Below are positions 910 through 38,433 of a stretch of 64,000 nt of DNA, one piece after another (the first letter of the stretch is position 1; each line of letters starts with the position of its first letter). The DNA comes from an uncultured Alphaproteobacteria bacterium (GTDB lineage Bacteria; Pseudomonadota; Alphaproteobacteria; Rs-D84). A model generated the notes under the pieces. It had not been told where the DNA came from and ran no database searches. It saw only the letters and a program-made list of their open reading frames with translations. The DNA lies in assembly GCA_944389385.1 (NCBI GenBank), contig CALXMC010000002.1, positions 15,353 to 79,352 on the forward strand. Direction: 5' to 3'. A program made the translations under genes and the position numbers.

Positions 910-3312
910 TTAAAACTGGGTATCGCTGCATGTTTCGACCGGATCCGCCCATGTTTTACAATATTTGTTACCAAACAATGGATTACCAGTTTTTGTGCAT
1001 TGTTGGGTGCGCGTGCATTTATGGCATACCAGATTTTCCCAATCAAACGTTGTTGTAATCGTTTCTTTGTAATTCCACTGATTTACCGATTTTGAACCAG
1101 TTAAATCAAGTTGACCCGCACCATCGGCACCATTCGCACTGCCAGAACCTACATTCCCTAACAATCCTACTCCACTAGTTGCTATAGCAGCACTCGCCAA
1201 CCATATTGCCCCAACAGTAGTCACAGGAACAGTAAACGCAACGACCGTTGCAGCAGCAATTGCAACCGCCGACAACATTTTTCCAAATGCGTTTTTCGGT
1301 GGTTCGGCCGATTTTGGCAAACTGGACAGTTCTGCAAAATTAACGCATGCTTCGCGTGCCATTTCACGGCGCGCATCTTTGGCATTTTCGCCATGTATTT
1401 CGGCAATGCGTTCGCCGATTGTTACATAGTCTTGCTGTAACCGTTCGGTTAATTCATCATATTTGGCGTAATAATTGTCTTTGGCGGCTTTCAGCGCGGC
1501 ATTCGCGATAATCATACGCATTTGCGTTGTCAAGGCGGGAAAACGTCCGCGGACTTGACCCGTGTTGCCGGCACGGTCGACTATGGTTTCAATACCGTCA
1601 ACCTCGCGTCCGTTCATACAGTATTGAACGTTTGGATCGGATTCAATCGCGTTAATTGCTGTGTCGATGTTACGTTGCAATACCGCCAATTCAGACGAAA
1701 TCATTTCGCGCTGACTTTCGGGGATGTTCGTTTCGCCGATATTTTTCAAGTATTCATCAACCGAGATTAACCGACCGTCTTCATTAATTTCAACACTTTC
1801 CCAATAAATCACCCCGTCAATAACCCCAGCCAATGGCTTGATTGTTCCGGGAATTTGTTCACCGGTTGCGGGGTCAATGCCCGGACTGCGCCCCAGTTCG
1901 TCATCTGTGATTTGCGAAACATCGGTGCGGCAATTTGTATAGTTGATGTCCATGCTGTCGTTTTCGCCAGAATATTCGCAAATCTTGTATTCCAACGACC
2001 GTGACCCCAGGTTTTCATCAACGGTCAGCCCCAGGCAGTTATCTGTGTCACCACATACCTTTATCATGGCTTCGTCTGCGATTTTTTGGCATTGGGTCAG
2101 CATATTATTGTCGATGTTTAAGAATATGCCTTGGGCAATGTTGTATAATTCATCATAGACCGCATCGTCACGGATGTCGGTTTCGCCATATTTTTGTTGG
2201 CACCCGACCAAGGTGTCGTACGGGCACATGCGAACGATTGTGTCTGTATCCAAACCGATACACTGTGTGTAATCGGGACCGCATCTGTCTTCGGATTGCA
2301 GACAGTCTTTGAACTGAGTCGTACAAGAATTAACGCGCATGGATGCCAAACGTGCCAATATGAAATCCCATATATCGGATTCTGGGGCGGATTCTTCTGA
2401 TATACCGCATGCGTTCAATGGTACTTTACACAGGTTTAGCATCGTTTCGGGGCGGGTCAGGCACATATCGTATGAACCGTCTGGGTCGTTGGGATCCATT
2501 GTGTCTTTACAGGCCTGTTGGAAACAAGACGATATATTACCAATACAATTTTGACGGGCGTTATCCTCGGCAATCAGTTCGGCAGATTTAACCTGGGGCG
2601 CAACCTCGCGCAGGAATGTATCCCAAACCTGGGATGCAACGTTTTGGCATTGTCTGGTGATGCCTTCACACAGCGGTTTTTTGGACAATAAAATGTCATA
2701 GGTCGATGCCTGGATTTCAATGCTTGTTGCGCTGCCTTTGATGGTGTATGTGTTGCTTAAATCGCGGTTAGTGCTGCGTGTGTTGGTGGAATCAAACGCC
2801 GCAATGGATGCGCAACCTGAAAAGTCAGAACCGCAGCCGCCTGTTTCAATCATGCAATTTTTGAATTCCACAACGCATTGTCCCAAATCATACTTGTTTG
2901 CAGACTGATATTGTTCCAATGCCGCACTGCGCAGTGCTTGCTCGGCGGTATATAATTTTTGCGCACTGGCGTTACGTTGTTGCTTTAATGAATTTTCATA
3001 CGCGGTACAATCAGAACGAATTTGTTGCGCGTACATCAAACGCAACATATCCATTTCATCGGCACATTCAGGCATTTGTTGGGCGCAAATTTCATAAGAT
3101 GCCTGATGTAATGCGTCGCCGGTTTTGTTGTCAATAGGGCTTTGGAATATGTCGGCATTGGAAAAAATGTCTTCGTCAGATACATCAACCGGCATCAGCC
3201 AAGAATTCAAATCTGTGACATTGGTCAGATCTGGCAAATCTAACGGTGGTTTGATTTTCCACATTTTTTTGATGATAAAAAATTGTCGTAAAATGATAAA
3301 AAATCCTTTCAA
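910..3312 (-). CDS. Cys-rich paralog 'B'; 5'-truncated (no signal peptide or first Cys domain), probable silent cassette
   Basis: Open frame of about 780 aa. Homology to 3361-6375 begins abruptly at 3246 (PLDLPDL vs PLKLPDL at 4003). The upstream 22 codons are not signal-like. Ends WADPVETCSDTQF. Confidence 0.8.
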   Translation of the reverse strand: MKGFFIILRQFFIIKKMWKIKPPLDLPDLTNVTDLNSWLMPVDVSDEDIFSNADIFQSPIDNKTGDALHQASYEICAQQMPECADEMDMLRLMYAQQIRSDCTAYENSLKQQRNASAQKLYTAEQALRSAALEQYQSANKYDLGQCVVEFKNCMIETGGCGSDFSGCASIAAFDSTNTRSTNRDLSNTYTIKGSATSIEIQASTYDILLSKKPLCEGITRQCQNVASQVWDTFLREVAPQVKSAELIAEDNARQNCIGNISSCFQQACKDTMDPNDPDGSYDMCLTRPETMLNLCKVPLNACGISEESAPESDIWDFILARLASMRVNSCTTQFKDCLQSEDRCGPDYTQCIGLDTDTIVRMCPYDTLVGCQQKYGETDIRDDAVYDELYNIAQGIFLNIDNNMLTQCQKIADEAMIKVCGDTDNCLGLTVDENLGSRSLEYKICEYSGENDSMDINYTNCRTDVSQITDDELGRSPGIDPATGEQIPGTIKPLAGVIDGVIYWESVEINEDGRLISVDEYLKNIGETNIPESQREMISSELAVLQRNIDTAINAIESDPNVQYCMNGREVDGIETIVDRAGNTGQVRGRFPALTTQMRMIIANAALKAAKDNYYAKYDELTERLQQDYVTIGERIAEIHGENAKDARREMAREACVNFAELSSLPKSAEPPKNAFGKMLSAVAIAAATVVAFTVPVTTVGAIWLASAAIATSGVGLLGNVGSGSANGADGAGQLDLTGSKSVNQWNYKETITTTFDWENLVCHKCTRTQQCTKTGNPLFGNKYCKTWADPVETCSDTQF

Positions 3313-3336
3313 AAATACACCGATATATGATAGAAT
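3308..3336 (+). promoter_or_regulatory. Putative sigma70 promoter of paralog A
   Basis: ttcaaa-N17-tagaat upstream of an aaggac RBS-like sequence and ATG 3361. Confidence 0.45.
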
Positions 3337-3360
3337 TATGTAAATAGGAAGGACCTTTTT

Positions 3361-6300
3361 ATGAGAAAATTTGCAATTTTTTGTGCATTGTTGATTGGTG
3401 TTGTTTATAACGCAGATGCTGCGACCGCACGAAATCCACGCGGTGGGACGGTTGCGACGACCGGGGGGGCGGCCAGTACGGGTACTCGGTCGACTACTGC
3501 GCGCAGTGCGACGACGGCGCGTGCCGCGACGGCGACACGTGGTGCTGCACCGGCGGCGGCAACAACGGCGCGTGCGGCAACTGCGGGGCGTACCACGGTC
3601 AGTCGCGGCCCGGTTGCAACAACATCTTCGTCTTCATCGGGATCTGGGGTTGCGCGCAGTGCGGTTGCGCGTGCGGGTGCCACGCAGAAGGTTATATCCA
3701 CTGGAACCAAGGTTGCCACCGCAAATGAAAATGTAGTCGTCAGTCAAGAATGTCGCCAGAAATATTACGGTTGTATGGATTCTTTCTGTATGTTGGATAA
3801 CGATAATGGCGGCCGCTGTATTTGCAGTGACCGCAGTGCTGAATTGGATTCGATTTTGGCACAAATCGAGGAACTGGATCAGCAATCTTATCAGATGGCA
3901 ACGTATGGCGTTGAACGTATCGAAATGGGTGATGCGGCCGAGACTGCAATCGCAAATGCAAATGCCGTTGCCCAGGCCATTTTGGACGAGCAAGAAAATG
4001 GACCGTTAAAATTGCCTGATTTGAATACTTGGATGACGCCTGTTGGTGCCGAAGAAGAAGATATTTTCGAAGATGTTACAAATATTTACCAAAGCCCGGT
4101 CGAAGGCAAAGAAGGGGATGCGCTGTATTCCGCTTCGCATGATATTTGCGCGGCACAAATACCCGAATGCGAGGCTGAAATGGATATGTTACAGTTGATG
4201 TATTCACAACAAATTCGTTCTGATTGCACCGCGTATGAAAATTCATTAAAGCAACAACGTAACGCCAGTGCGCAAAAATTATATACCGCCGAGCAAGCAT
4301 TGCGCAGTGCGGCATTAGAACAATATCAAAATGCAAACAAGTATGATTTGGGGCAGTGTGTTATCGAATTTAAGACCTGTATGATTGAAACTGGCGAATG
4401 TGGCGATGATTTTTCTGGATGCGCGTCCATTGCCGCGTTTGACGAAACAAATACACGTGGTGCAGGGGATCGTGCAAAAACATATAAAATTCAGGGCAGT
4501 GCCACCAGTATAGAAATTAAAGCGTCTACCTATGACATTTTGTTGTCCAAAAAACCGCTGTGCGAGAGTGTTACCAAGCAGTGTGTGGCCGCAAACGAAG
4601 CCGATGGTGGTGACCAAGTGTGGATGGCGTTCCTGCGCGAGGTTGCCCCCCAGGTTAAATCAGCCGAACTGATTGCCGAGGATAATGTTCGTCAAAATTG
4701 TATTGGTAATATATCGTCTTGTTTCCAACAGGCCTGTAAAGACACAATGGATCCCAACGACCCAGATGGTTCATACGATATGTGTTTGACAAGACCGCAA
4801 ACGATGTTTTCGCTGTGTACTGTGCCATTAAACGCGTGCGGTATATCGGCAGAAGATGGTGATGCAGACGATGTTAATGATCCAAACGGAATTTGGGACT
4901 TTGTTTTGGCGCGTTTGGCGTCTATGCGTGTGAATTCGTGCACAGACCAGGTAAAACAATGTTTGCAATCCGAAGACAGATGTGGGTCTGATTACACACA
5001 GTGTATCGGTTTGGATACAGATACAATCGTTCACATGTGCCCCGAGGAATTGTTGGTTGGTTGCCAAACATACGATGGTGGCAGCAGTGCCCAAACATAC
5101 GGTAATGATGAAGAAGATTTCTATGCCAAATTAGAGCCCATGATCCAGGGTATTTTGCTGAATATAGATAACAGTTTGTTGGAAGAATGCCAACGTGCCG
5201 CAGATGAAGCAATGATTACAGTATGTGGCAGTACTGAAAACTGCGATAATATGACTGTTGATGAGTATATCGGCGCAAATACGTTGGAGTATAAGATTTG
5301 CAGAATAATTGGTGATGACGACAGTACTGATATAGATTATAACAATTGTTATACTGATTTATCCCAAATTTCTGATACTGAATTGGGATTGCATGATTTG
5401 AACAAGGGGGCTGATGGTGTTCGGGCGGCAAACGAGAGAATAGATTTCGCCATCATTATCGAAGGCGAAATGCCGTGGGAAAATGTAATATTTGATGAAA
5501 ATGGAAAAATAGCCATAACTTCAATCGACCCAGATACACAAAACCAACGTAAAATCGAATCGGAATTGGCAACATTGCAGAATAATATAAATAATGCAAT
5601 TAACGCGATTGAATCAAACCCTGATGTGCAATTCTGTACTGTTGGGCGTATTGTTCAGGGCGTGAATGATGATGATGTCGAGGTTGGACGTACACCACAG
5701 GTGTCTCAATCGTTGCAGACGGCACAAAGATTGCAACCAAATGCGCAAGTAAATCCAAATGCACAGTTGGTTCAGACCGCGCGGTCTGTATCTGACAGAA
5801 CCGCAACCCAGGTCAGTGCATTGGATGTCGCGGTAAATAATCAGACAATTGTCGATCGTTCCGGGGCGGGCGGACGTTTCCCGGGGTTGACCATGCAAAT
5901 GCGTACTATGATTGCGACGTCGGCGATAAATCGTGCCATTGCCAATTATCGCGCAAAATATCAAGAGTTGGAAGAACGCCGTATGCAAGATTATGTGACA
6001 CTGAATGAACGTATGGCAGAAATCGATAACGAAAATACATTAGAGGCACGGCGCGAGGCTGCGCGTATGGCGTGTATCGGAACTGCGGGGGCGTCTACGT
6101 TTAGTGCTGATGCGTTTTCTGTCAAAAAAGGACGCGAAACCGCCAAAGGTGATGTCGACAGCAGTTTGGTCGGCAAAGCCAATGATGAATATGTTGGAAC
6201 CGAAGATAACAGCCGTTGGAATTATCGCGAGGTTATAACGTCTACATTCAATCCGTCGACTTTGGTGTGTAATCGTTGTACCAGAACACAAAACTGTGCA

Positions 6301-6375
6301 GACCCCAAGGGTGGACGTAAATTGTGCAAAAGATGGTCAGACCCGGTTGAAACGTGCGAAGATATACAGTTTTAA
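3361..6375 (+). CDS. Secreted Cys-rich paralog 'A' (1004 aa), function unknown
   Basis: Signal peptide MRKFAIFCALLIGVVYNADA, Thr/Ala/Arg-rich linker, CRQKYYGCMDSFC..GGRCICS motif, coiled-coil-like segments, C-terminal WSDPVETCEDIQF. Confidence 0.9.
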   Translation: MRKFAIFCALLIGVVYNADAATARNPRGGTVATTGGAASTGTRSTTARSATTARAATATRGAAPAAATTARAATAGRTTVSRGPVATTSSSSSGSGVARSAVARAGATQKVISTGTKVATANENVVVSQECRQKYYGCMDSFCMLDNDNGGRCICSDRSAELDSILAQIEELDQQSYQMATYGVERIEMGDAAETAIANANAVAQAILDEQENGPLKLPDLNTWMTPVGAEEEDIFEDVTNIYQSPVEGKEGDALYSASHDICAAQIPECEAEMDMLQLMYSQQIRSDCTAYENSLKQQRNASAQKLYTAEQALRSAALEQYQNANKYDLGQCVIEFKTCMIETGECGDDFSGCASIAAFDETNTRGAGDRAKTYKIQGSATSIEIKASTYDILLSKKPLCESVTKQCVAANEADGGDQVWMAFLREVAPQVKSAELIAEDNVRQNCIGNISSCFQQACKDTMDPNDPDGSYDMCLTRPQTMFSLCTVPLNACGISAEDGDADDVNDPNGIWDFVLARLASMRVNSCTDQVKQCLQSEDRCGSDYTQCIGLDTDTIVHMCPEELLVGCQTYDGGSSAQTYGNDEEDFYAKLEPMIQGILLNIDNSLLEECQRAADEAMITVCGSTENCDNMTVDEYIGANTLEYKICRIIGDDDSTDIDYNNCYTDLSQISDTELGLHDLNKGADGVRAANERIDFAIIIEGEMPWENVIFDENGKIAITSIDPDTQNQRKIESELATLQNNINNAINAIESNPDVQFCTVGRIVQGVNDDDVEVGRTPQVSQSLQTAQRLQPNAQVNPNAQLVQTARSVSDRTATQVSALDVAVNNQTIVDRSGAGGRFPGLTMQMRTMIATSAINRAIANYRAKYQELEERRMQDYVTLNERMAEIDNENTLEARREAARMACIGTAGASTFSADAFSVKKGRETAKGDVDSSLVGKANDEYVGTEDNSRWNYREVITSTFNPSTLVCNRCTRTQNCADPKGGRKLCKRWSDPVETCEDIQF

Positions 6376-6385
6376 TCTGTGATGA

Positions 6386-9331
6386 ATGTTGAAACGAATA
6401 CTTGTTGTTTTGATGTTTGTGTGCGGGTTTAATATTCCCGCAGATGCTGCAACACGCAGTGTTTCGACTCGTACCGTGTCGCGAAATGCTGCGCCGGTGG
6501 CGAATGCCCCGGCGACCGCGGTTGCAGCACGCAGCGCAACGACGTCAACAAATCCATCCGCCGGTGTCGCGGCGCGCGCGGCAACAACACAAAAAGTTAT
6601 CGGAACGGGTACCAAAGTTGTTGCAGCAACCAAGCCCGTCGTTTCAAACGAAGAATGCCAACAAAAATATTTCGGTTGCATGGATTCGTTGTGCATGTTG
6701 GACAGTGCCAATGGTGGGCGGTGTGTGTGCAGTAATAAAAATGCGACCTTTGATTCCATTTTGGCTGAAATCGAAGATTTTGATTTGAAAACATATCAGA
6801 TGGTAACCGTTGGTGTCGACAGTCTGGAACAGGGGTACGATATAAACGCGGTTTATGCCAAACCTGAATCTGGGGTGGATTTGTCGGCATGGAATGCTGT
6901 GTCAGATGAAGAGTTTGTGCAATCGTCGTCGGCTTTGCCGTTAAGTGACGTGACGGGTGATGCTTTGTTTTTGGCCGCACATCAAAATTGTGCTGCTGCG
7001 ATTCCTGAATGCAGTGCCAATATGCAATTTTTGCAATTGTTATACAGCCAACAAATAAATAATGATTGTGCCGCGTATGAAAATTCGTTAAAACAGCGTC
7101 GTAATGAAGCCGCACAAAAATTAGAGTCTGCCCGTTTGGGGTTGTTGGATGCGTCTTATACCGCGTTAAGTAATGCCAATAAATGGGATTTGGGACAATG
7201 CGCGGTGGAATTCAAAAATTGTATGATTTCCACGGGTGGATGTGGTGCCGATTTTTCGGGATGTGCGCCAATCGCTGCGTTTGATGCAACAAACGCCCGT
7301 TCATCTGGGGCAGGGCGGCAATATAATATCGCGGGCGAACAAACCACCGTTACAATTTCTGCATCTACGTATGATACTTTGTTATCTAAAAAGCCGTTGT
7401 GTGATAATGTTACACAAAATTGTCAATCCGTAGCGGATCAGGTTTGGGATACATTCCTGCGTGCGAATGCGCCCCAGATTAAATATGCTGAACTGATTGC
7501 CGAAGATAACGCGCGCCAGGATTGTGTCGGCGATGTGTCGTCTTGTTTCCAACGTGCGTGCCGCGATAATATTGATCCGAAAGATCCGTCGGGGTCGTAT
7601 GATGCGTGTCTGACGCGGCCCGGGACAATGTTGTCGCTTTGTACTGTGCCGTTGAATGCGTGTGGGATTTCGACTGAATCAGCCGAGGCCGCAGAAAAAT
7701 CGGATATATGGCAATTTGTTTTGGCGCGTTTGGCATCTATGCGTGTGAATTCTTGCACCACTGAATTCAAAGAATGTTTGCAATCACCGGACAGATGCGG
7801 TTCTGATTATACTCAATGTATTGGGTTGGATACTGATACAATAATGCACATGTGTCCGTATGACACCTTGGTCGGATGCCAGCAGGTTTATGGCGCGCGC
7901 AATATTCGCGGTAATGCAGTATATGACGAATTGTACAATGTTGCCCAGGGTATCTTTTTGAACATAGATAATGAAATGTTGGATTATTGCGAAGCCGCAC
8001 TGGAACAGGCGACCATTACCGCATGTGGCGATTTGGATACGTGTAAAACACTGGTTGATGATACTTTGTTGGGAACTCGTTCGTTAAATTATGAAGTGTG
8101 TGAAATTGTTTTCTTGGATGAAGGTCAAAAAATCGCGTATCAAAACTGTGTTGCAAATGCGGGATTGGTGTCGGATGAAAAATTGGGGCGCGTGGTAAAT
8201 GCAGGCGGCGAAGGACTGGGGCCTGTTACCCCGATGGGTGGTGTGATCGACGGCAATATTTATTGGGATGGCGTTAAAATTGACGACGATGGAAATATCA
8301 GCAATGTGGATGAGTATTTCAAAAATATAGGAATCACAGAACCAGAACAGGATGAATATAATTCCGTTCATCGTGAATTGGGGCAATTGCAAAATAATTT
8401 ACAGCGGATTTATGACGTAATTGAATCCGATCCCACGGTGCAGTTTTGTATGACTGGGCGCGAAGTGGATGGAATAAAGCCTTATTCGGGTACGTCTGTG
8501 CCACGTTTCCCAGAATTAACCAAGTCCACACGTCTGAAAATTGCAAATCAGGGTCTGCGCCAGGCGATGGATAATTATTATCAAAAATATGATAAGTTAC
8601 AGGCGCAACAGGCCGAAGATTATGCGACCATTACCGAACGTTTGGCGGAAAATCGTGGCGAAAACGGCAAAGATGCCCGCCGCGATGCCGCACGTCAATC
8701 CTGTGTCGATTTGGCCAAGGGTGCGGCACTGCCACGTGCGAAAACCCCCACGTCTTTGATTGGAATCATTACCACAATAGTTGTGGTTATCGCAGTTGTG
8801 ACCGTCGTTACTGTATTTACAGCCGGTGCCGGTACAATAGCGGCAGGGGCGGGTATGGCGGCCGGATTCGAGGCTGCTGCGGGTTCTGGATTATCACTTA
8901 CAACTGTTTCTACTTTGAGTGCTGTTGGAACAGGCGCGGGGTTATCCGGTGCGTCTGGGGCTGGACTTAGCGGAATTGCGGCTGCGGCTTTTAGTGCCAC
9001 TACGACTTCTTTGGCAACATCGGCAACGGTTGCAACGGTTGTTGGGGTTGTTGGTGGAACGGCCGCCGCTGCGGGTATTACGGCCGCCGCCGCGGTTGAT
9101 TACACTGGCCCCCAGGCGGTCGATGGTTCTGGGGAATTGCAGGGCAGGTATGAAAATGACCAATGGAATTATCGCGAAGTCATCGAAACGCGGTTTAATA
9201 TGGATACTTTGGTGTGTGAAAAGTGTGTAACCCAACAACAGTGTAATCAGACAAAATCGCCTTTCTTTGGTAATATGTACTGTAACAGTTGGGCAGATCC
9301 TGTTACTGAGTGCACGGATATTCAGTTTTAA
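6386..9331 (+). CDS. Secreted Cys-rich paralog 'C' (981 aa) with long Gly/Ala hydrophobic segment
   Basis: Signal peptide and the same Cys spacing as A and B; hydrophobic Gly/Ala stretch of about 110 aa (LIGIITTIVVVIAVV...AAAGITAAAAV) before the C-terminal domain ending DIQF. Confidence 0.9.
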   Translation: MLKRILVVLMFVCGFNIPADAATRSVSTRTVSRNAAPVANAPATAVAARSATTSTNPSAGVAARAATTQKVIGTGTKVVAATKPVVSNEECQQKYFGCMDSLCMLDSANGGRCVCSNKNATFDSILAEIEDFDLKTYQMVTVGVDSLEQGYDINAVYAKPESGVDLSAWNAVSDEEFVQSSSALPLSDVTGDALFLAAHQNCAAAIPECSANMQFLQLLYSQQINNDCAAYENSLKQRRNEAAQKLESARLGLLDASYTALSNANKWDLGQCAVEFKNCMISTGGCGADFSGCAPIAAFDATNARSSGAGRQYNIAGEQTTVTISASTYDTLLSKKPLCDNVTQNCQSVADQVWDTFLRANAPQIKYAELIAEDNARQDCVGDVSSCFQRACRDNIDPKDPSGSYDACLTRPGTMLSLCTVPLNACGISTESAEAAEKSDIWQFVLARLASMRVNSCTTEFKECLQSPDRCGSDYTQCIGLDTDTIMHMCPYDTLVGCQQVYGARNIRGNAVYDELYNVAQGIFLNIDNEMLDYCEAALEQATITACGDLDTCKTLVDDTLLGTRSLNYEVCEIVFLDEGQKIAYQNCVANAGLVSDEKLGRVVNAGGEGLGPVTPMGGVIDGNIYWDGVKIDDDGNISNVDEYFKNIGITEPEQDEYNSVHRELGQLQNNLQRIYDVIESDPTVQFCMTGREVDGIKPYSGTSVPRFPELTKSTRLKIANQGLRQAMDNYYQKYDKLQAQQAEDYATITERLAENRGENGKDARRDAARQSCVDLAKGAALPRAKTPTSLIGIITTIVVVIAVVTVVTVFTAGAGTIAAGAGMAAGFEAAAGSGLSLTTVSTLSAVGTGAGLSGASGAGLSGIAAAAFSATTTSLATSATVATVVGVVGGTAAAAGITAAAAVDYTGPQAVDGSGELQGRYENDQWNYREVIETRFNMDTLVCEKCVTQQQCNQTKSPFFGNMYCNSWADPVTECTDIQF

Positions 9332-9333
9332 TA

Positions 9334-9570
9334 GTTACTCGTAATTCGTGATAGATCACCCTTCGCCAAGGCTTCGGGTGATAAACCACCCCGGCACGCT
9401 TACCACCCACGAAAATTGCATTTTCGCGGGGCCCGGTATCGTGCCACCCCTCCGCTAGATGAGGAACTTTGTTCCGCGACGGGATGGGGGCGGTAGCCAT
9501 AGCCTGACTCAGAGGAGAACTTGTTCCGCGACGGTACAGTCTAACTTCCCCTCCGCTAGATGAGGAACTT
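9334..9570. repeat. Composite palindromic repeat cluster 2
   Basis: gttactcgtaa, cacccttcgccaaggcttcgggtga and accaccccggcac...cccctccgctagatgaggaact modules shared with the other clusters. Confidence 0.85.
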
Positions 9571-9643
9571 GTTATATTCCTATCGTGGGCAAATTCTCAC
9601 ACCGTTGGATGTGCGCTTCAATACCTGTTGTGTGGGTGGGGTG

Positions 9644-9670
9644 TAAAAAATCCCCCAGATGGGGGGATTT
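9644..9670. terminator. Intrinsic terminator (for 9691-11799 on the minus strand)
   Basis: aaaaaatccccc-agatg-gggggattt hairpin. Confidence 0.7.
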
Positions 9671-9690
9671 GACACCTGTTAAATTTCTTA

Positions 9691-11799
9691 CTATTCACAT
9701 GCACCGTGCGATTTCGCAACCGGATAGTTTTCCAGACATACACTGCCCGAAACTGTGCATGCGCCCGGAACCAATGTTATGGCATTGCTGTCCGCGGGTT
9801 TATAGTTAATTTGCGCCGATGCACACTGGTTCAAGTCAGTTATCGAATTGCACGAACGACGCCATGAATCACAATCTGAGGCAGAACCAGTCGGACTGAC
9901 CGTTTCCGGCAAATTCAGATTCCATTTTACATAGAAATCTTTCAGTGATTCAATTGCGTATGATTTGTTATATCCGACCTGGGCCAGGTTATCGCCAACA
10001 TGACAACTGATGTTGCTGCGTTCGACAAATGCAGTTATCGCGGTTGCCAACCCACCTGCGCCTGCACCAACGCCCGCGCCAATGCCGATTGCTTTACCCA
10101 TGTTGGATTCTTCGCCGTTTCGCAACAAGTCTGTGACGTCGGCGTTGAATATCCGTGACAAGATATCGTTTGCCTGTTGACATGTCATATATTGGGGTTC
10201 GTCACAATGCAGTAATGCCAACGGTACGTCCGTGGTTGCGTATGTTTCGGCTATTTTGGTTTGTGATACTAATTTGACCGTTGCGTGTTGTGGGTCGATG
10301 CCATACTTGTTGATGAATTCGTTTTGGCAACTTGTTGCATCATCGCTGGAACACGCGAAACTGACGTTATTCAAGTAATTTTCACATTCATCAACTGTGT
10401 CGAATTGTGTGCATGCAGTGGCGTATTGACTGAAACATTCGCCCGCATCCATGGAACCACAGTTCAATGACGTTGCAAATTTGAATATCGTGCTGTTTAT
10501 GTTGATTATGTCAAAACTGATGCCTTCCCCAAAATCAAACAGTTTTGTAATCTGTTCGCATTGGTCGATGGACACCATTTCAGTTATTGCAGATATTTTC
10601 AAAGATGGATCGTCAATGAATTCATTCACAGAACCAATCAAACCATCGTTCTTTAACAAATCGGTCAACATCTCACGATGTTTATCACGTGTGCAATCAA
10701 ACGCGCGGTCGCCATGACCCGCAATTGCACCAACGCCCGCGCCAACAACTGCGCCGCCACCGATACCCACAACCGCCGCAGTATTTGTTTGATTCATTAA
10801 CGAAAATCCGAATAAATCGCGATTGCATGTGAATGTATCGCCCGCGCGACGCCATACTTCGGCGGGTTGGTCGTTACCGACCGCACCGAATAACCAACTG
10901 TTTTTAATTTGTTGATTTTTGTTGTATGCCGCAACACGTATCCAACATTCAGCGGTTTCTGGATCCCAACGGGCGTAGTGTCCGCGTGCACCATCAACGC
11001 CCGAGTTGCCATAGTTTAATGCAGCACCCTGGGGGTTGCGTTTCACCAATATTCCGCCGTTTTGATTGTTGTATGCACCTGTGCTGATGTTGTATTCAGA
11101 TGTAACACTGCCTGCATTCGATACCGCATCAAATGATGGACCGTACGTATTTACATCCAAAAGTTTGCATGTGTTTTCAGCCTGGTACGGGGTTAATCCA
11201 GTTTTGCGTAATACAAAGTTATAGTATGTTGGTTGAACCTTGCGCGAGTTAAAGTCAATCCATACATCAGACGGCATACGATATACGTTGGAACAATCCT
11301 GGCGTACTTCGGCTATGCAGCGTTCAACCTGGGGTTGACATAAATTCATGCCGTTTATGATGGAATTGCGCAATTCCGTGTTAAACATGTCGTTAATGCC
11401 GCCGGGCAGGGCGCCACTGTTGATACATAACAACAAATCATCCATACAGTTATCAACCGTGTATGTTGAATTTTCAACGCCACCATCGGGGCATTCGGGT
11501 TCTGGATCCGGGTCTGGGTCTGGATCAGGATCTGGATCTGGGTCCGGATCTGGATCCGGTTGATCCGGATTGTCCGGCGTGACAGATGGTAAATTTGGTG
11601 AAGTATTACCGACCGTAAAATTTGGTAATGTCGGCATTGTTGGCATGCGTTGAGACGAACCGGCCGTTGTGGCCGCAGCACGCCCAGATGGTGCAGTATT
11701 GGCGCCACTGCGTGCGGTAACCGCGTCCGCCGAGCCGATTATTGCACATACAACAAATCCCGTTAATGGTGTCAAAAATAACCTGTGCCAAGATTTCAT
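9691..11799 (-). CDS. Secreted Cys-rich protein (702 aa) with Pro-Asp repeat linker and two glycine-zipper segments
   Basis: Signal-like N-terminus, (PD)n tract, AAVVGIGGGAVVGAGVGAIAG and AIGIGAGVGAGAGGLATAI segments, many Cys. Confidence 0.85.
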   Translation of the reverse strand: MKSWHRLFLTPLTGFVVCAIIGSADAVTARSGANTAPSGRAAATTAGSSQRMPTMPTLPNFTVGNTSPNLPSVTPDNPDQPDPDPDPDPDPDPDPDPDPEPECPDGGVENSTYTVDNCMDDLLLCINSGALPGGINDMFNTELRNSIINGMNLCQPQVERCIAEVRQDCSNVYRMPSDVWIDFNSRKVQPTYYNFVLRKTGLTPYQAENTCKLLDVNTYGPSFDAVSNAGSVTSEYNISTGAYNNQNGGILVKRNPQGAALNYGNSGVDGARGHYARWDPETAECWIRVAAYNKNQQIKNSWLFGAVGNDQPAEVWRRAGDTFTCNRDLFGFSLMNQTNTAAVVGIGGGAVVGAGVGAIAGHGDRAFDCTRDKHREMLTDLLKNDGLIGSVNEFIDDPSLKISAITEMVSIDQCEQITKLFDFGEGISFDIININSTIFKFATSLNCGSMDAGECFSQYATACTQFDTVDECENYLNNVSFACSSDDATSCQNEFINKYGIDPQHATVKLVSQTKIAETYATTDVPLALLHCDEPQYMTCQQANDILSRIFNADVTDLLRNGEESNMGKAIGIGAGVGAGAGGLATAITAFVERSNISCHVGDNLAQVGYNKSYAIESLKDFYVKWNLNLPETVSPTGSASDCDSWRRSCNSITDLNQCASAQINYKPADSNAITLVPGACTVSGSVCLENYPVAKSHGACE

Positions 11800-11886
11800 A
11801 AGGAATCTCCCCCTTCTGTCATTTCTGTAATTATATCACTAATCAGGATATAAACAAAGCACTTTTTGGATATAATAGTAAACGGG

Positions 11887-11914
11887 TTGACAAATATATA
11901 AAATTGTCTATAAT
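11887..11914 (+). promoter_or_regulatory. Consensus sigma70 promoter
   Basis: TTGACA-N16-TATAAT, 6 nt upstream of GTG 11921. Confidence 0.75.
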
Positions 11915-11920: not shown

Positions 11921-12895
11921 GTGAAGAAAATATTTAAATTTTTGCAGAAAAATAAATATGCCATTGTGTGGACGGGCTGTTATGTCGCGATAATGTGGGC
12001 AATTTTGAAATTCATGTTCAATTTTGATATGTTTTCGGTCGCACAATGGAATGTTTTGGTACATGCCCAGTTGCGCGGATTCCCGGGTTTTGTGTTTGGT
12101 ATCTTGATTCTGGCGGCTTTACCGTTATATATTGCCACAACAATGGTTGTTGTGCGTACGGGTAAACCGTTGATTAAATTAAGCGTTCCAAAGTTTATGA
12201 CACCCGTTGCAATCGATGATGGTAAAAAGAAAGATGATGCGGCACCCGTCGTAAAAACAGATCCAAAACCAGATGATAAAAAAATTATTCCCACAGAATT
12301 ACAGGCTGCATTTGACCGGGCGCGTGTGCATGGTGGTGCGGCTGCGCCAAAATCTGTGTTTGATATTGGCAACATGATGACGCAAAAATCAGAGCGCGCC
12401 GACGATAATTCTGTCCCAGAATTACAGCCGTCAGACGCGTTTCCATTGCCGAATGATTTTGATTTGTCGGTGGGGGATGCGGTGCCGTCTTTTACGCCTG
12501 TGTTTTCCGATATGGATTTCGAGGTTGAAGATACCGATGACGATGTTATGCGCACGCATGGTGTTGGTGGTGCGGTTGGCGATTTTTTGACCAATAATGG
12601 TGTTAATTTTAATATGGACGGTGATGTTGTGTTGACTGCACGGGATGCGATTGCCGTGCATAATGACCCTGATTTTTGGGTGGCGGATGATGATGCTTGG
12701 TTTGCAAATGGCAATCAGAAAACATCGCCCATTGCGAATGTGTTGGATGTGGCGGCTGCGCACGGGTTGCGGCCTGTGCTGTATTTGGGCGCGACCAATA
12801 TTATGGATTTGGATGCGCGTCGTGCGGCGTGGGAATCCATGGGTGTTACCGTTATTACTGATTTGAATGATTTGTTGGGGGCTAGTTACTCGTAA
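11921..12895 (+). CDS. Hypothetical membrane protein (two N-terminal TM segments)
   Basis: 324-aa ORF with hydrophobic YAIVWTGCYVAIMWAIL and GFVFGILILAALPLYIA; consensus promoter upstream. Confidence 0.8.
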   Translation: MKKIFKFLQKNKYAIVWTGCYVAIMWAILKFMFNFDMFSVAQWNVLVHAQLRGFPGFVFGILILAALPLYIATTMVVVRTGKPLIKLSVPKFMTPVAIDDGKKKDDAAPVVKTDPKPDDKKIIPTELQAAFDRARVHGGAAAPKSVFDIGNMMTQKSERADDNSVPELQPSDAFPLPNDFDLSVGDAVPSFTPVFSDMDFEVEDTDDDVMRTHGVGGAVGDFLTNNGVNFNMDGDVVLTARDAIAVHNDPDFWVADDDAWFANGNQKTSPIANVLDVAAAHGLRPVLYLGATNIMDLDARRAAWESMGVTVITDLNDLLGASYS

Positions 12896-25069: not shown

Positions 25070-26158
25070 TCATCGATCGATTTGTGCCGGGATAATCGTT
25101 TCTGATTTCGTGGCGTCCAATGGGTGCGATTGGAATTTAATCGTTGCGAAATCTATGTTTGATAAATCCAATTCGCGTATCGTGCGATTGTACATAGTGT
25201 GATAATATATCACGCGGTTGCGCATATCGTTCGCAATTGTCCATTGTGTCGCAGACGGCATATTAACCGGTGCGTCACCCGGCGCAAATTCAGTTCCCAG
25301 TGGTACGTCAAAATTATTCAGAATATGAAATGCCTGCATTGCTGCATCAAATGTGGTTTCTTGTTTTATCGAGTAAGTCTGTAAAAATGCGGCGCGAACG
25401 AATCGCGATGGCGGGGTGAAATCACCCGGCAGCCCCAACAAACCTGAACCTGTACCAAATGCCCGCAGTGTTATCGGACCGAATTTTACCGGTCCCGCCG
25501 CGCCCGGCGCCAAATTTACATAGTTGTTCAGATTTTTTAATTGCCATGGATATTCGGGCGAATTTGCCAATACGCCCAGTTGGCTGTCATACACGTTGGC
25601 GACGCCATCGACAAATTCAATGATGATTTGTTTGCCTGATGGTTCGGTTACGCGCCAATGCGCGGTGGATGCACGTGGATCTATGCTTGCCACGCGAATG
25701 TTTTTGATTGCAGATTTAACCTGATCCACGGTGGAAAAGCGCGACAGAATCCATGATACCAATTGAAAATCTGATATAGTATTTGCATTGTCGTTCGCGT
25801 CGTACGGTGGGTATTCGCCGTATCCTGGGAAATAAAACAGACCCGCCGACAGGCCGGCTTCGTTCATGCCGTCAACCACCCAATCGGGGCGAACCACCGC
25901 CAATCCGACATAGCCATACATGCTGGAAAAAGTCATGCCGCCAGTTTTGCCGCCCGGTAACATAGATTGTTGGACATATCCGCGTGGGACGATTGTGTAA
26001 AGATTGTCCATCTCGGATTCGCCCCATTCAATCGTGCGTGCGGCAACAACACCGCCGTCATTTGCAGTCAGGGTAATACCCGTACAGGCATCCGCCCCGT
26101 GTGCGCCAATAATGCCGATAATCACGGCCAGCGCAGGTAAAATCTCTCTCGGTTTCAT
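25070..26158 (-). CDS. Ntn-hydrolase, choloylglycine hydrolase / penicillin V acylase family, with signal peptide
   Basis: Start MKPREILPALAVIIG..ADA followed by CTGITL (catalytic N-terminal Cys); ARTIEW, DGMNEAGL, LPGDFTPPSRFVRA. Confidence 0.9.
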   Translation of the reverse strand: MKPREILPALAVIIGIIGAHGADACTGITLTANDGGVVAARTIEWGESEMDNLYTIVPRGYVQQSMLPGGKTGGMTFSSMYGYVGLAVVRPDWVVDGMNEAGLSAGLFYFPGYGEYPPYDANDNANTISDFQLVSWILSRFSTVDQVKSAIKNIRVASIDPRASTAHWRVTEPSGKQIIIEFVDGVANVYDSQLGVLANSPEYPWQLKNLNNYVNLAPGAAGPVKFGPITLRAFGTGSGLLGLPGDFTPPSRFVRAAFLQTYSIKQETTFDAAMQAFHILNNFDVPLGTEFAPGDAPVNMPSATQWTIANDMRNRVIYYHTMYNRTIRELDLSNIDFATIKFQSHPLDATKSETIIPAQIDR

Positions 26159-26254
26159 GATTGGATTGTGGCACAGTTTGAAATATTTTTCCACAGGAAA
26201 CATGTCGGAAAATATACAAATAAAAAAAATACCCCGGCGGGGTGTTTTTTTATT

Positions 26255-26328
26255 TGGTTGGGGCACACGGACTCGAACCGCGATATACAGAGTCAGAGTC
26301 TGCTGTTCTACCATTAAACTATGCCCCA
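26255..26328 (-). tRNA. tRNA-Gln (anticodon CTG)
   Basis: Reverse complement TGGGGCATAGTTTAATGGTAGAACAGCAGACT-CTG-ACTCTGTATATCGCGGTTCGAGTCCGTGTGCCCCAACCA folds as a cloverleaf with encoded CCA. Confidence 0.95.
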
Positions 26329-26565: not shown

Positions 26566-29500
26566 ATGTCAGCATACAAGCATTTGACAGATTTGCTGAA
26601 AATCTGTTCTGTGTTGCCGGCGTTGGCAATTATGCCTGCGGTTGCGGCTGAAACTTCAAATGATCCGAATAAAGTTGGGCAATGGTCGGGTAATGAATAT
26701 ATAGAAGAAGAGAATGTAAAACGTGGTGGCGGTGTGTTGAAATTGGCCACTGGCGATACATATCAGAATGATTATATCCAGGCCGGTTTGGTAAGTGGAA
26801 ATTCCATATCTGTGACCAAGACAGGTGGTGGAGTAGCTAATGATGTTTATGCCCAAGGTTCTGTGTTGTACAGCCATGGTTCGTTGGGTGGTATCAGCGG
26901 TACTTTCAAAAACAACAGCGTGAATACATCTGCGGCTGAACGCGGCAAAGCGTCCGCCAATGGTGGTGCTTTTGCTTTGTATGCGGGGACGGATATAAAA
27001 TCTATTTCTGGGGATTTTATTGGTAATAGCGCGACGTCAAAAGTTGATGGTGGAAAGTATTCTGATAAAAACAACCAAGTATCCGCAGGTGGTGGCGCAA
27101 TACATATCGAGGGTCAGTATGGTAACAAAGCAGTAAGTATCGGCGAAATCGATGGCGATTTTACTTCCAATTCTGCCAATGGTGATGCGTATGCCAATGG
27201 TGGTGCAATTTATATCAAGGGCGGTGCTGATCGTGAAGGTAATTCCGGGTTTGCCGTTACTGTCGGTATGATTGACGGTGATTTTTCCAGAAATTCGGTT
27301 ACTGCAACTGCGGACAAGGGTGCGTTTGTTGCCGAAGCTTATATGAAAAACTCGACCGGTGGCGCTGTTTCCATCAAAGAAGAAAATGGTGGTGCTGCGA
27401 CTGTCACAATTGACGGCGATTTTGAATATAACACGGTAACAACAAATGCAACAAATGCGTTTGGTGGTGCGATTTATAATGAAGGCACATTGACACTGGC
27501 AGACAGTGATTTTACGTATAACAAGGCTGCATCAACCAGTGGTGACAGTCGCGGTGGTGCGATTTATAATGCCGCAACGAATGCCAAAGGCGATACCGTC
27601 GCGGGTTCTGTGACCATAAACGGTGATGTTGATATTATTGGTAACTCGGCCGGTTGGGGCGGTGCGATTTGGAATGAAGGTGAATTGGTTTTCGACAATA
27701 AGGGCCAACAGGTTACATTCGGTGGTAACAGCGCAACAGCCGGGAATGCCGGTGGTGGCGCGATTTATAACATTGGTTCCATCGGTACATTGTCGCACAT
27801 GTTGTTCCAAGGCAACAGTGCCGACATGGGTGGTGCGATAAATAATGGGTGGTTTGAGGGTAAAGGTGGCCAAATCGAAACCATAACCAATTCATTCTTT
27901 GTCGGAAATGTTGGTAAAAACGGTGGTGCAATACGCAGTAATTCTCATATTGGCAGCATTACCGGTGTTCGATTTGAACGTAATGTTTCGGCAAATGGTG
28001 GCGCATTATGGAACGGATCGCTTGCTGATCTTAACAAAATAGACGGTGTTCAATTTTTGTATAATGCCGCAACGGCAAGTGGTAAGGGCGACAGACAAGG
28101 TGGTGCAATTACCAATGGTGGTGTAATTACTTTGGTTTCAAACACGAACTTTATTGGTAACCAAGCCGGTGATATTGGTGGCGCAATTGCCAATGATGTA
28201 TCCCAGGCAGGTAAAACACCAACAATAACATTACAAAATGTCTTGTTTGATTCCAATTCAGCCGGGAAAAATGGTGGTGCCATCCACAATGTCAGTGGCA
28301 GTGTTGTTAACCTGATGGGTAACAATACGTTCGTGAATAATTTTGCGGGCGGTGTTGCCAATGATATTCATAACTTGGGGACGCTGAATATCAAGGGTGG
28401 TGTAACAACCATGACCGGCGGTATTACGGGTGATGGTGGTGTGCTGACCATTTCTGGTGGTGCAATTTTGGATATCGGCACCGCGTCAATCCAACAGTCT
28501 TCAATTAAATTTGACGGCGAAGGCGGTAAATTGTTTGCATCGTTGGTAAATGAGGACTATTATTCAAAATTGTTGGTTGATTCTATCGAAGGTGATGCAG
28601 ATATTACGCTGAAGATAGGTTCTGTTGGCGAATATGATGTCTTTGGTAAAGATGGTGTGACAAGTATAACATTTAACCACGGTAATTTGTTCAATGTCAC
28701 AACGTCCGATGACAATAAAGTAATCGTTACCACCAAAGACGTGGCGACTGTCGCCAAGGATAATGGTTTGGCAAACGAATCGGCGGCTGTTTTGGTTGGA
28801 TTGGCAAACAGTGGTAACAACGCTATGAACGCTATGGCAATCCGCGCGCAAGATGCGTTAAAAGAGCAGGGCGGTGCCCAGTATGTCCAGGCGGAAGCCA
28901 AAAAATTACTGCCCCAGGATACGCCAGTTGCGCAATCGGTTGCATCGTCTGCACAAAGCCAAGTGTTGTCTTTGGCGGCGGGACGTATGTCCGGTAATGC
29001 GCTGGTTGGACGCAGCGGTGGTGATGCGGCCAATATGGATTACGGCGTATGGGCCCAGGGCTTGATGAACCATTCGAAATATGCCGATAAGTTCAGTGGC
29101 GATACATACGGCGTTGCCGTTGGTGCGGATGCGTTGATTAACGGTAAATACACCGTTGGTATCGGTTATGCGTATAACGAAACTGATATCGATGCAACGC
29201 ATGATATGTCAATCGACAGCAGCAGTTTGTTCGTGTATGGCCAGTATAAGCCAACGCAATGGTATATTAACGCCGCGTTGAACTATACAATGGCGAATTA
29301 CGAAGAAAGTGGCGTTGCATTCGATAGGGCGTTCGATTCATATAAATATGATGTCGATTCGTTTGGTGGGCAAATCATGACTGGATACGATTTTGCATCT
29401 GGTTTAACGCCCGAGGTTGGCGCACGTTACCTGCATATCGCGACCGATGATTATAACAACGGTTTCAATGTTGAAAACGAAGATACAAATTATCTGACCG

Positions 29501-29802
29501 GTGTTGCAGGATTGAAATATGCGTTCGAAATCGAATCGGATGCACGGTTGAAATTCCGTCCAGAAATCCGTGCCGCCGCGACATACGATTTCTTGTCGGA
29601 TGAAGCGGTAACCACCGTTACAATCCCGGGTGCCAGTGCGTACGTGCTGAATGGTGAACGGTTGTCTCGGTTCGGTGGGGAATTCGGTATCGGATTGTCC
29701 GCGCTGTACGAAGGATGGGAAATTTCTGTGAATTACGATTTGGATTTGCACGAAGATTACACATCCCAGACAGGTATGCTGAAATTCAGATATAACTTCT
29801 GA
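26566..29802 (+). CDS. Type Va autotransporter / Pmp-like adhesin
   Basis: Signal peptide, many FxxN...GGAI beta-helix repeats, C-terminal barrel beginning YGVWAQG and ending KFRYNF. Confidence 0.9.
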   Translation: MSAYKHLTDLLKICSVLPALAIMPAVAAETSNDPNKVGQWSGNEYIEEENVKRGGGVLKLATGDTYQNDYIQAGLVSGNSISVTKTGGGVANDVYAQGSVLYSHGSLGGISGTFKNNSVNTSAAERGKASANGGAFALYAGTDIKSISGDFIGNSATSKVDGGKYSDKNNQVSAGGGAIHIEGQYGNKAVSIGEIDGDFTSNSANGDAYANGGAIYIKGGADREGNSGFAVTVGMIDGDFSRNSVTATADKGAFVAEAYMKNSTGGAVSIKEENGGAATVTIDGDFEYNTVTTNATNAFGGAIYNEGTLTLADSDFTYNKAASTSGDSRGGAIYNAATNAKGDTVAGSVTINGDVDIIGNSAGWGGAIWNEGELVFDNKGQQVTFGGNSATAGNAGGGAIYNIGSIGTLSHMLFQGNSADMGGAINNGWFEGKGGQIETITNSFFVGNVGKNGGAIRSNSHIGSITGVRFERNVSANGGALWNGSLADLNKIDGVQFLYNAATASGKGDRQGGAITNGGVITLVSNTNFIGNQAGDIGGAIANDVSQAGKTPTITLQNVLFDSNSAGKNGGAIHNVSGSVVNLMGNNTFVNNFAGGVANDIHNLGTLNIKGGVTTMTGGITGDGGVLTISGGAILDIGTASIQQSSIKFDGEGGKLFASLVNEDYYSKLLVDSIEGDADITLKIGSVGEYDVFGKDGVTSITFNHGNLFNVTTSDDNKVIVTTKDVATVAKDNGLANESAAVLVGLANSGNNAMNAMAIRAQDALKEQGGAQYVQAEAKKLLPQDTPVAQSVASSAQSQVLSLAAGRMSGNALVGRSGGDAANMDYGVWAQGLMNHSKYADKFSGDTYGVAVGADALINGKYTVGIGYAYNETDIDATHDMSIDSSSLFVYGQYKPTQWYINAALNYTMANYEESGVAFDRAFDSYKYDVDSFGGQIMTGYDFASGLTPEVGARYLHIATDDYNNGFNVENEDTNYLTGVAGLKYAFEIESDARLKFRPEIRAAATYDFLSDEAVTTVTIPGASAYVLNGERLSRFGGEFGIGLSALYEGWEISVNYDLDLHEDYTSQTGMLKFRYNF

Positions 29803-29873
29803 TGATGGTATGCAAATAAAAATCCCCCAATCGGGGGATTTTTTTTATCGTTTTTTTTATATTTTTTTTATTT

Positions 29874-30578: not shown

Positions 30579-30666
30579 TTTTCCTTCTCTTCTCTCTGAG
30601 ATTCTATCAAAAATTTTTATCTATGGCAACAGATAAACGCTGGGTCGTTTTACACAGTTGTTTATT

Positions 30667-33222: not shown

Positions 33223-33317
33223 TTCCTGCTATATTTATACAAATGATAACAAAAATATGTTTTTATGAAAAGTAATATTTACGTAATGGGAATAAAAAAA
33301 CCGCCGTTTGGCGGTGT

Positions 33318-33569
33318 TTATTTATTTTCAGTATTTTCAGCCGTCGGACGGTTGCGTTCAACGAATGTTATACGACCCTTGTCCAAATCATAAGGTGTCA
33401 TTTCAACGCGAACGTTTTCACCAACATTTACCCATATCCGTAATTTTCGCATTTTTCCACATACTGTGGCCAATATTTCGTGTCCGTTTTCCAAACGAAC
33501 CCGGAACATAGTGTTGGGTAATTTGTCAATCACTGTGCCGCTGAAAACAATAACGTCATCTTTTGCCAT
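33318..33569 (-). CDS. infA: Translation initiation factor IF-1
   Basis: MAKDDVI..G.V...[33 protein letters not shown]. Confidence 0.95.
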
Positions 33570-33716
33570 TGTGTATTCCACTTTGTATTTACGTATATTT
33601 ATTTCGCGCACTATGATATTATTTCAATTAAAAAATTGCAAGTTGTTTTTAAGTGCTTGCACAATATGGGGGTATTTGATAGAATTATGTAAGATTAACA
33701 ATGTAGGGTGGAATTT

Positions 33717-35873: not shown

Positions 35874-35922
35874 TTTGTAATTTGGGCACTTTGCCCAAAT
35901 TATATAATTGTGGGAATAAGCG

Positions 35923-38433: not shown

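Follow-up and report, generated by a model that had tools for sequence, protein, structure and literature searches.

An expanded family of exported cysteine-rich proteins and its predicted shufflon-like inversion locus in the gut bacterial order Rs-D84

In the IncI shufflon (Rci, sfx, PilV adhesin), site-specific inversion joins in frame a constant N-terminus to exchanged C-termini of an exposed protein. Here we describe a locus of similar arrangement in an uncultured alphaproteobacterium, Candidatus Enterousia (order Rs-D84), together with the protein family to which it belongs. The locus lies on a stretch of 64,000 nucleotides, called the window throughout (G000:C2:15353-79352), where two genes of a family of large cysteine-rich proteins, A910 and B3361, stand head-to-head. 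Members are named by a letter and the first position of their open reading frame (ORF), and also by the letter alone. As far as the excerpt of the source goes, sfx sites consist of a variable 12-bp left arm, a 7-bp core and a conserved 12-bp right arm (10.1101/2024.10.25.620183). The A/B sites share a 7-bp core and have similar bases on one side only, although coding homology alone would give the same picture. The A/B locus differs from the shufflon in having only two bodies, in flipping promoter and head and not tails, and in having no adjacent Rci-like tyrosine recombinase; its protein is unrelated to pilins.

Two other inversion systems are close in design. In the sap S-layer system of Campylobacter fetus a promoter segment flips between opposed homologous genes, so that one surface protein is made at a time, and the exchange uses long conserved 5' regions and RecA. 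At the A/B locus, in contrast, the crossover is a 7-bp core inside the reading frame and the promoter takes the head domain along with it. Intragenic invertons of gut bacteria, in the portion of the source available, have their breakpoint within a coding region, so that one locus gives two proteins (PMC10028968). They lie wholly in one gene, whereas the A/B inversion spans two opposed gene starts and swaps bodies of about 780 amino acids (aa).

The organisms of order Rs-D84 are uncultured, have genomes below about 1 Mb and are without respiration, many biosynthetic pathways or standard transporters; they were judged to be probably dependent on other cells (PMC12306168). Only "hypothetical membrane-bound proteins" are mentioned for them in that study (PMC12306168). 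Among the papers retrieved on Enterousia and Rs-D84, no title or abstract describes the cysteine-rich family.

The proposed A/B inversion locus

The A/B locus is, judged by its sequence, a putative shufflon-like in-frame inversion switch, and A910 is its alternate cassette, which the first-pass annotation of the window had missed. A910 (910..3312, minus strand) is a 5'-truncated body cassette without signal peptide or N-domain, placed head-to-head with B3361 at 48 bp from the start codon of B. B3361 (3361..6375, plus strand) encodes a full-length protein of 1004 aa whose body has no hydrophobic hairpin; from the arrangement it should be the currently expressed form. Homology of A to B begins at B residue 215, and the first 20-odd codons of A are the reverse strand of the region upstream of B. 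The left inversion site (3225..3247, minus strand) reads from 3247 as the 7-bp core ACCGTTA followed by GATTTGCCAGATCTGA, and the right site (4002..4024, plus strand) as the same core followed by AAATTGCCTGATTTGA. The core together with its following arm has only two matches in the 993-kb genome, and these form the inverted pair. The next 16 bases after the core are identical at 12 positions between both sites, an arm similarity that is confounded by coding homology.

Between the sites lies the invertible segment (3248..4001, about 754 bp, without assigned strand). It contains the promoter-like TGATAGAAT, a ribosome-binding site, the ATG at 3361 and the codons of B residues 1-213, and thus encodes the signal peptide, the basic Ala/Thr/Arg linker, the 5-Cys N-domain and the long helix of B. 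TGATAGAAT is a -10-like box, located with the ribosome-binding site within 3232-3700. The counterpart of 3232-3700 is contiguous in genome G464, where it consists of upstream sequence and gene start.

Both orientations were found in one species at the protein level. P0397 (992 aa) combines the head of B (216/216 residues identical) with the body of A (764/776) and falls into the same 90% cluster as A. P0418 (796 aa) carries the A head 'MWKIKPPL' on the body of B (787/788 identical) and falls into the same 90% cluster as B. The two proteins, which are reciprocal products, are recorded on 3 and 2 contigs, respectively, with a longest contig of 18,871 bp for both. The crossover lies inside ACCGTTA, seven identical bases at the very edge of homology. 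Because no more than these seven bases are shared there, a site-specific recombinase fits better than RecA, and a stretch this short cannot confuse the assembler. A recombinase presumably acts at the A/B locus; elsewhere in the genome there are three tyrosine recombinases and a large serine recombinase at C2:144794-146407. Of the tyrosine recombinases, the 402-aa one at C4:27520-28728 has no more than generic Xer-like scores, and the other two are Xer-like.

The headless form is an intact ORF of 777-809 aa, in clusters that are 83-94% identical, and always has the head MW[KQ]IK[PG]PL. This head was found on A-like, B-like or P0344-like bodies in 24 of the 444 proteins of the collected set. The nearest relatives of the B body are headless too and have the same head (P0343 75%, P0344 63%), and P0344, which comes from another species, is segment by segment 97-100% identical to a full-length gene of G464. 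Full-length orthologues from other species join a B-like head (64-81%) to an A-like body (72-75%, compared with 51-58% to the B body). As the headless ORF stays intact and the reciprocal form occurs in the same species, A910 is not a dead fragment.

These data also bear on the possibility that A910 is a decaying remnant of an inverted duplication, with the flipped proteins being artefacts or one-off rearrangements and no programmed switch existing. Such a history would suit the GTDB genomes of related species, which mostly have full-length genes only, and the lack of an adjacent invertase gene; against it, the headless ORF is preserved intact with the same junction, and in other species this junction occurs with different bodies. 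One flipped member per cluster was present among the matches listed (15 each), and the mosaics P0433 and P0434 lie on 3-4 kb contigs and may be chimeras. Both reciprocal products exist, however, each with a longest contig of 18.9 kb, and a crossover of seven bases is too short to mislead an assembler or to serve RecA-type exchange. Overall we regard the remnant explanation as very improbable.

In the mechanism that we propose, inversion would join the constant head either to body B, without hydrophobic hairpin, or to body A, with the hairpin, and the unjoined body would be left as a silent, headless cassette. The segment of about 754 bp would thereby move promoter, signal peptide, linker and the N-terminal Cys and helix module together. 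Identity between A and B amounts to 86% in the Cys core and only 33-55% in the C-terminal half, and the hairpin is present in A only (residues 675-718, in addition to the C-terminal Cys domain). Therefore, the switch would alter mainly the distal half of the protein and the membrane-active segment.

Repeats and cassettes of related kinds were seen nearby and in a relative. Just 3' of the stop codons of A and C lie inverted repeats (849-930 and 9311-9395; 40 nt at 93% and 40 nt at 83%), which include a GGGGTGGTT-type element, so that inverted repeats enclose the A-B-C block in its entirety. In another species (G389:C1, L112) a 5'-truncated cassette of 496 aa at 4996-6486 is placed head-to-head at 86 bp from a full-length member. 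From the junction onwards it has at least 46 identical bases with its full-length partner. The junction lies elsewhere in the protein than that of A and B, and this arrangement is a second, independent cassette. About 7 kb past the end of the window (G000:C2:86374-91076) five ORFs, each encoding 240-314 aa with 19-21 Cys, alternate between the strands; the outer ones (86374, plus; 90132, minus) have the same first 30 residues, which suggests another inverted duplication.

A cysteine-rich family confined to order Rs-D84

The source genome, 993 kb in size and 97% complete, contains 14 ORFs of the family according to a profile of the six window paralogues, which together amount to 11,849 aa or 3.6% of the DNA. 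Searched against 1.84 billion proteins, the same profile matched 1035 cluster representatives at E<=1e-3 and 475 at <=1e-30. All 24 sampled genomes of the same genus have the family, with 6-17 matches apiece, as have 14 of 16 genomes from other families of order Rs-D84 (1-9 matches each), whereas none of 298 other Alphaproteobacteria gave any family match. The survey of taxonomic range and copy number that had been proposed in the first-pass annotation thus shows a lineage-specific family that is confined to order Rs-D84, with an expansion in Candidatus Enterousia.

This is a new protein family, and no relative of its predicted structure was recognised with the whole-length model. No Pfam domain was found on the best 120 homologues, of which the few named ones are called "hypothetical protein", and neither Pfam nor NCBIfam, run on the window proteins, matched a family member above cut-off. 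Among 54 family members no recurrent Pfam family was seen, and the family profile gave no match to PDB sequences at E<=1. Two sub-threshold candidates were rejected. A bacterial dynamin-like helical domain (Pfam E 0.035-0.057) appeared only in the close paralogues A and C, 2 of the 54 members, and is taken as noise, and for the zinc-finger TIGR04104 (E 0.032) only 34% of sequences have the second Cys of the CxxC.

Six clear paralogues lie in the window: A910, B3361, C6386, H30667, I33708 and J35923. C6386 (6386..9331, plus strand) encodes a full-length protein of 981 aa with a long Gly/Ala-rich hydrophobic region and starts 10 bp 3' of B. H30667 (30667..33222, minus strand; 851 aa) is divergent and without the C-terminal Cys domain. 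It is followed by I33708 (33708..35873, plus strand; 721 aa), which had been listed before under position 33717, and, after a gap of 49 bp, by J35923 (35923..38433, plus strand; 836 aa), directly behind which an intrinsic terminator is located (38438-38460). All other ORF positions were as first placed. In an all-against-all BLASTP the identity was 52.6% over 860 columns for A-B, 56.5% over 641 for A-C and 43.9% over 862 for B-C. J is 32-33% identical to A, B and C (E about 1e-109) and 30% to I (E 1e-59), and H shows 22-26% to the other paralogues (E 3e-12 to 3e-22). Cysteine makes up 3.2-7.1% of the residues in ten candidate proteins compared with 0.09-0.84% in four neighbouring ORFs. The description of an expanded, exported and disulfide-rich family in tight operons was therefore correct.

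The motifs on which that description was based could be reproduced as well. The N-domain pattern C...Y..CMD.[FL]C.{6,12}C.CS is found in the window in exactly five ORFs, B, C, H, I and J; four further ORFs outside the window have it too. Seventeen copies of CG.[DN][FYW]..C are spread over 12 of the genome's ORFs, whereas 20 shuffles averaged 0.2 copies and never gave more than 1, and five proteins (A, B, C, I and J) terminate in the domain with C-x-D-[IT]-[QN]-[FM].

Four more distant relatives had been suggested, and two of them hold. F14773 (14773..15666, minus strand; 297 aa, 7.1% Cys) is related by hmmsearch (E 3.5e-6) and hhalign (90.7%), and E13187 (13187..14776, minus strand; 529 aa), whose start it overlaps by 4 bp, by hhalign (90.5%) and BLASTP (2.4e-4). 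Both have the 4-Cys module C-x6-C-x6-CG-x-DF-x2-C in common. The other two were rejected: D9691 reached only 1.5% in hhalign, and its phmmer matches are confined to the low-complexity N-terminus of E, while G29874 reached 1.7% and gave no phmmer match. D9691 (9691-11799) encodes an exported protein of 702 aa with 27 Cys and two glycine-rich hydrophobic segments, and G29874 (29874-30578) an exported one of 234 aa with 10 Cys. D9691 and a protein with three transmembrane segments (11921-12895) are found near family genes in all three relatives examined (L093, L094 and L095), and a 1272-aa ankyrin-repeat protein (16620-20438) in two of three (L093 and L094).

Disulfide pattern and predicted fold

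All members except A have an N-terminal signal ending in ADA|A, and 98 of 123 full-length representatives have a hydrophobic N-terminus. The signal is followed by a basic Ala/Thr/Ser/Arg linker (isoelectric point about 12 in B, C and H), and the rest of the protein is acidic (4.2-4.8). The N-domain has five conserved Cys and the next stretch three. In 125 sequences with 19-71% identity to J, 33 Cys columns are at least 92% conserved.

The rare losses of these cysteines are informative. In 201 dereplicated sequences, counted as both present, both absent and discordant, the values were 177/18/0 for C379-C394, 181/10/0 for C268-C326, 185/7/1 for C442-C468 and 187/6/1 for C367-C412. Fisher probabilities overstate this pattern, as the sequences are kin, although the losses occur in different subfamilies. 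As the four conserved pairs vanish together, intramolecular disulfides are predicted between their members. Each paired Cys has a conserved Cys partner at i/i+7, and the pairs are symmetric: 261-333 goes with 268-326 and 367-412 with 374-405, with equal position sums (268+326 = 261+333; 367+412 = 374+405). The matching sums point to antiparallel helices linked by two disulfides each, a "twin Cx6C" hairpin. C435-C476 is a further predicted pair. The sequences hence indicate helices stapled by many intramolecular disulfides in repeated hairpins of this kind, and C-x6-C-x6-CG-x-DF-x2-C is an internal repeat (hhalign 94.5%).

Cysteines along one face of a helix that are bonded to an antiparallel neighbour helix are known from twin Cx9C (CHCH) and Helicobacter Sel1-like proteins. 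The family differs from these in its Cx6C spacing and its length of 700-1000 aa, and no Sel1 or CHCH domain was among the Pfam matches of the window proteins and the 54 members (E<=0.1).

J35923 was modelled with AlphaFold2 from an 83-row alignment (mean predicted local distance difference test score, pLDDT, 82.7; predicted template modelling score 0.50). By a count of its secondary-structure elements, helices take up 442 of the 836 residues and strands 81. The long helices span residues 81-111, 196-253, 334-380, 485-519, 604-633 and 667-697, next to a small strand region (540-579) and a beta domain (775-835), and the paired Cys map to helices. According to the model, J would be a rod made up mostly of helices, with a small beta domain at its end. 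A Chou-Fasman profile (35% helix, 17% strand) is crude and was superseded by the model. Foldseek against the PDB with the whole 836-residue model gave no match at E<=0.001, and in a VIA-wide comparison the best Z of 7.8 belonged to generic helical bundles, below the level that this tool treats as meaningful for helical proteins. In VIA, residues 47-256 of the model align with surface helical bundles (Z 6.8 for 5vtl, 6.4 for 4e40, 5.2 for 4x0j and 5.9 for 6poo). The trypanosome invariant surface protein, the haptoglobin-haemoglobin receptors and the N-domain of BibA share with this region an elongated three-helix bundle; identity is 6-11%, however, and a Z below about 13 for helical bundles means a common arrangement only. 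The analysis thus yields a concrete predicted disulfide map and a confident structural model without known relative.

Many Cys-rich exported envelope proteins, a small-genome host-dependent diderm and DsbA are also features of the chlamydial outer membrane complex, whose envelope is, as far as the excerpted source describes it, disulfide cross-linked (PMC6752827). By analogy the family could form a periplasmic or outer-membrane-associated skeleton that stiffens the envelope, partly via intermolecular disulfides. The Sec signals, with no dedicated secretion route identified in the annotated regions, would suit this possibility, and the odd Cys counts of the N-domain and the following stretch make pairing across domains or molecules possible; the paired-loss pattern, in contrast, fits intramolecular pairs. 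The genome has 35 ORFs of 200 aa or more that bear a signal and contain 3% Cys or more (7.1% of the genome), and there are chlamydia-like neighbours, namely an autotransporter with Chlamydia-PMP repeats (Chlam_PMP) at 26566-29802 of the window and a Protochlamydia Pom-like porin domain at G000:C2:95830-97281, beside another family member. The family itself, unlike chlamydial Cys-rich proteins, is helical, with disulfides that appear intramolecular, and has no sequence similarity to them: the profile of the chlamydial Cys-rich outer membrane protein did not match any of 14 window proteins or 54 family members. Peptidoglycan genes are also kept (SLT and OmpA domains; MreB, RodA and MrdA are reported in the order, PMC12306168), and in-frame inversion switches, such as the one proposed for one member, are typically seen with exposed structures. 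On balance a skeleton is unlikely, if still a serious contender.

Other giant Cys-rich exported ORFs of the genome lie at C5:101980-109995 (2671 aa, 218 Cys), C5:30308-35680 (1790 aa, 135 Cys), C4:72728-74686 (652 aa, 60 Cys) and C3:130286-133387 (1033 aa, 49 Cys). These ORFs have Listeria-Bacteroides repeats and ephrin-receptor-like or TNFR-like modules, an architecture unlike that of the family studied here.

Conserved paralogues, envelope context and function

The order H (minus), I (plus), J (plus) is kept among relatives, where I was found with more than 60% coverage in 79/80 loci and H, cut by the flank, in 80/80. Median ratios of nonsynonymous to synonymous substitution (dN/dS) were 0.06 for J (30 pairs) and 0.07 for I (55 pairs), compared with 0.064 for a neighbouring OmpA-like gene (13 pairs). 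I and J are under strong purifying selection, like housekeeping envelope genes, and with dN/dS of 0.06-0.07 they are neither antigens in rapid evolution nor toxins of an arms race. For H, I and J, low dN/dS and fixed synteny led us to reject the idea that the entire family varies antigenically. In I the glycine zipper and the C-terminal CQEIESCEDINM are nearly invariant among orthologues (44 sequences).

A multi-subunit surface structure made of hetero-oligomers had been envisaged, and the conservation of H, I and J as syntenic paralogues makes it plausible. When the cores of I and J were co-folded, the interface score ipSAE (interaction prediction score from aligned errors) was 0.45 (runs 0.45, 0.59 and 0.19) compared with 0.00 for the best control, with runs agreeing in at least 34% of contacts and a partner pLDDT of at least 67. 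The mark used for ipSAE is passed by most solved complexes (58 of 80) and by few mismatched pairs (2 of 110); at values up to 0.60 there are only 7 of the 80 solved complexes but both passing mismatches. The co-folding therefore hints weakly at an association of I and J, and the pass may merely reflect the likeness of the paralogues. H, I, J and also C are fixed, differentiated components that are probably assembled together.

In contigs of four RNA libraries (three studies), the depth over H, I and J is low and similar to that of the neighbours; this is compatible with transcription and no more, since such libraries can contain DNA and contigs give no ranking of genes. In the contigs of the four libraries the GC-rich intergenic region 38950-39440, with many short palindromes (GACCACCCCG...CGGTGGG) and many joints and loose ends, has a depth of 7.7-74 compared with 0-5.4 in four bins on each side. 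Rfam gave nothing significant at 38.8-39.5 kb, where this depth peak lies, and the region could be either a repeat element that other organisms also carry or a structured RNA of new type.

The first-pass annotation had compared the proteins to alpha-pore-forming toxins or fusogens, on account of glycine-zipper and hydrophobic hairpins in several of them. Such segments are indeed present in A, C and I and absent from B, H and J; among the 123 full-length representatives, a strongly hydrophobic segment in the last 300 residues occurs in only 24. A pore-forming, membrane-attack or fusogen-like apparatus that inserts these hairpins into the membrane of a partner for nutrients would make sense of the nearly invariant zipper of I and of a switch between a hairpin-bearing and a hairpin-free body. 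It would also suit an organism predicted to be partner-dependent and without standard transporters (PMC12306168). However, a two-helix hairpin followed by a disulfide-bonded domain suits a membrane anchor equally, and I and J evolve like housekeeping envelope genes. Gly-zipper_Omp did not reach the Pfam gathering cut-off (15.3 bits on I33708 compared with 25; 2 of 54 members at E<=0.1), Foldseek and VIA gave generic helical bundles only, and neither the sequences nor the fold of the whole J model matched a toxin or fusogen family. The toxin or fusogen comparison is thus not borne out, and such an apparatus appears improbable.

The envelope in which the family would work includes lipid A genes, a type IVb pilus cluster with secretin and TcpQ, two TolC-like genes, autotransporters, SLT and OmpA domains. 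The family proteins gave no match to an autotransporter or outer membrane protein domain, unlike the neighbour at 26566-29802, and the modelled C-terminal beta domain of J has only about 60 residues. The type IVb pilus genes (G000:C1:45079-47874 and C1:166649-171428) comprise secretin, TcpQ, PilO-like, T2SSE and T2SSF, with DprA nearby, and could serve DNA uptake or protein export. For folding, a DsbA gene (48176-49009, plus strand) and a PpiD-like gene (22323-23735) are present in the window as had been noticed before. The genome has no second DsbA-family gene. This DsbA is membrane-anchored, has a CPYC active site and presumably oxidises the proteins of the cysteine-rich family; no DsbB or VKOR partner was detectable in the genome. 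Many disulfide-rich proteins and a DsbA without DsbB or VKOR, in an anaerobe without quinone-linked respiration, make an oxidative-folding puzzle. In this otherwise metabolically minimal genome the window also has a gene of the choloylglycine hydrolase family (25070-26314; bile-salt-hydrolase-like, Pfam E 1e-61).

Considering all data, we favour the reading that the family forms a helical surface or adhesin layer which is exposed and hardened by disulfides, and in which one member is phase-variable in a shufflon-like manner; we hold this to be modestly probable. The proteins would be exported by Sec and form, as acidic, elongated and largely alpha-helical molecules, the coat of a partner-dependent gut bacterium; their C-terminus would be a small beta-rich Cys domain, preceded in some paralogues by the glycine-zipper or hydrophobic hairpin. 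Surface exposure, an adhesin or coat function and assembly of the paralogues are what we infer from these features.

Several observations weigh against this reading. No localisation signal places the proteins outside the outer membrane, and the hydrophobic segments towards the C-terminus could anchor them in the inner membrane, facing the periplasm. The secretin that was found belongs to the type IVb pilus cluster, and a type II secretion cluster was not seen in the annotated regions, which are selected regions and not the whole proteome. Oxidation of the Cys in a gut anaerobe is unexplained, DsbA having no detectable DsbB or VKOR, and a rapidly varying antigen would not show the strong purifying selection seen on I and J. 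As to the switch, both inversion states are known solely from predicted proteins of public assemblies, with at least one flipped form per cluster among the matches listed (15/37 and 15/48 members). The whole head-to-head junction occurs in only 1 of 257 species genomes of the genus, which is the present one, and near the locus no recombinase gene adjoins it in the window.

A bolder version of the surface-layer reading, which we consider speculative and improbable, is a contact organelle of an obligately partner-dependent bacterium, in which H, I, J and C would build a disulfide-hardened stalk at the surface of the cell and the A/B inversion would reprogram its tip between a soluble or adhesive and a membrane-inserting body. 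If this were true, the cell would alternate between attachment to a partner cell and engagement of its membrane so as to gain metabolites, by means of a programmable cell-cell interface of a new kind that works without a known DsbB/VKOR oxidation pathway.

The A/B locus offers a compact two-state DNA switch with defined sites, and its predicted states would be directly countable in metagenomic reads. Rs-D84 bacteria are widespread in animal and human guts, uncultured and predicted to live off other cells (PMC12306168). As the family takes up 3.6% of a 1-Mb genome, is confined to the order and is strongly constrained, it is the best candidate so far for how Rs-D84 cells meet their surroundings.

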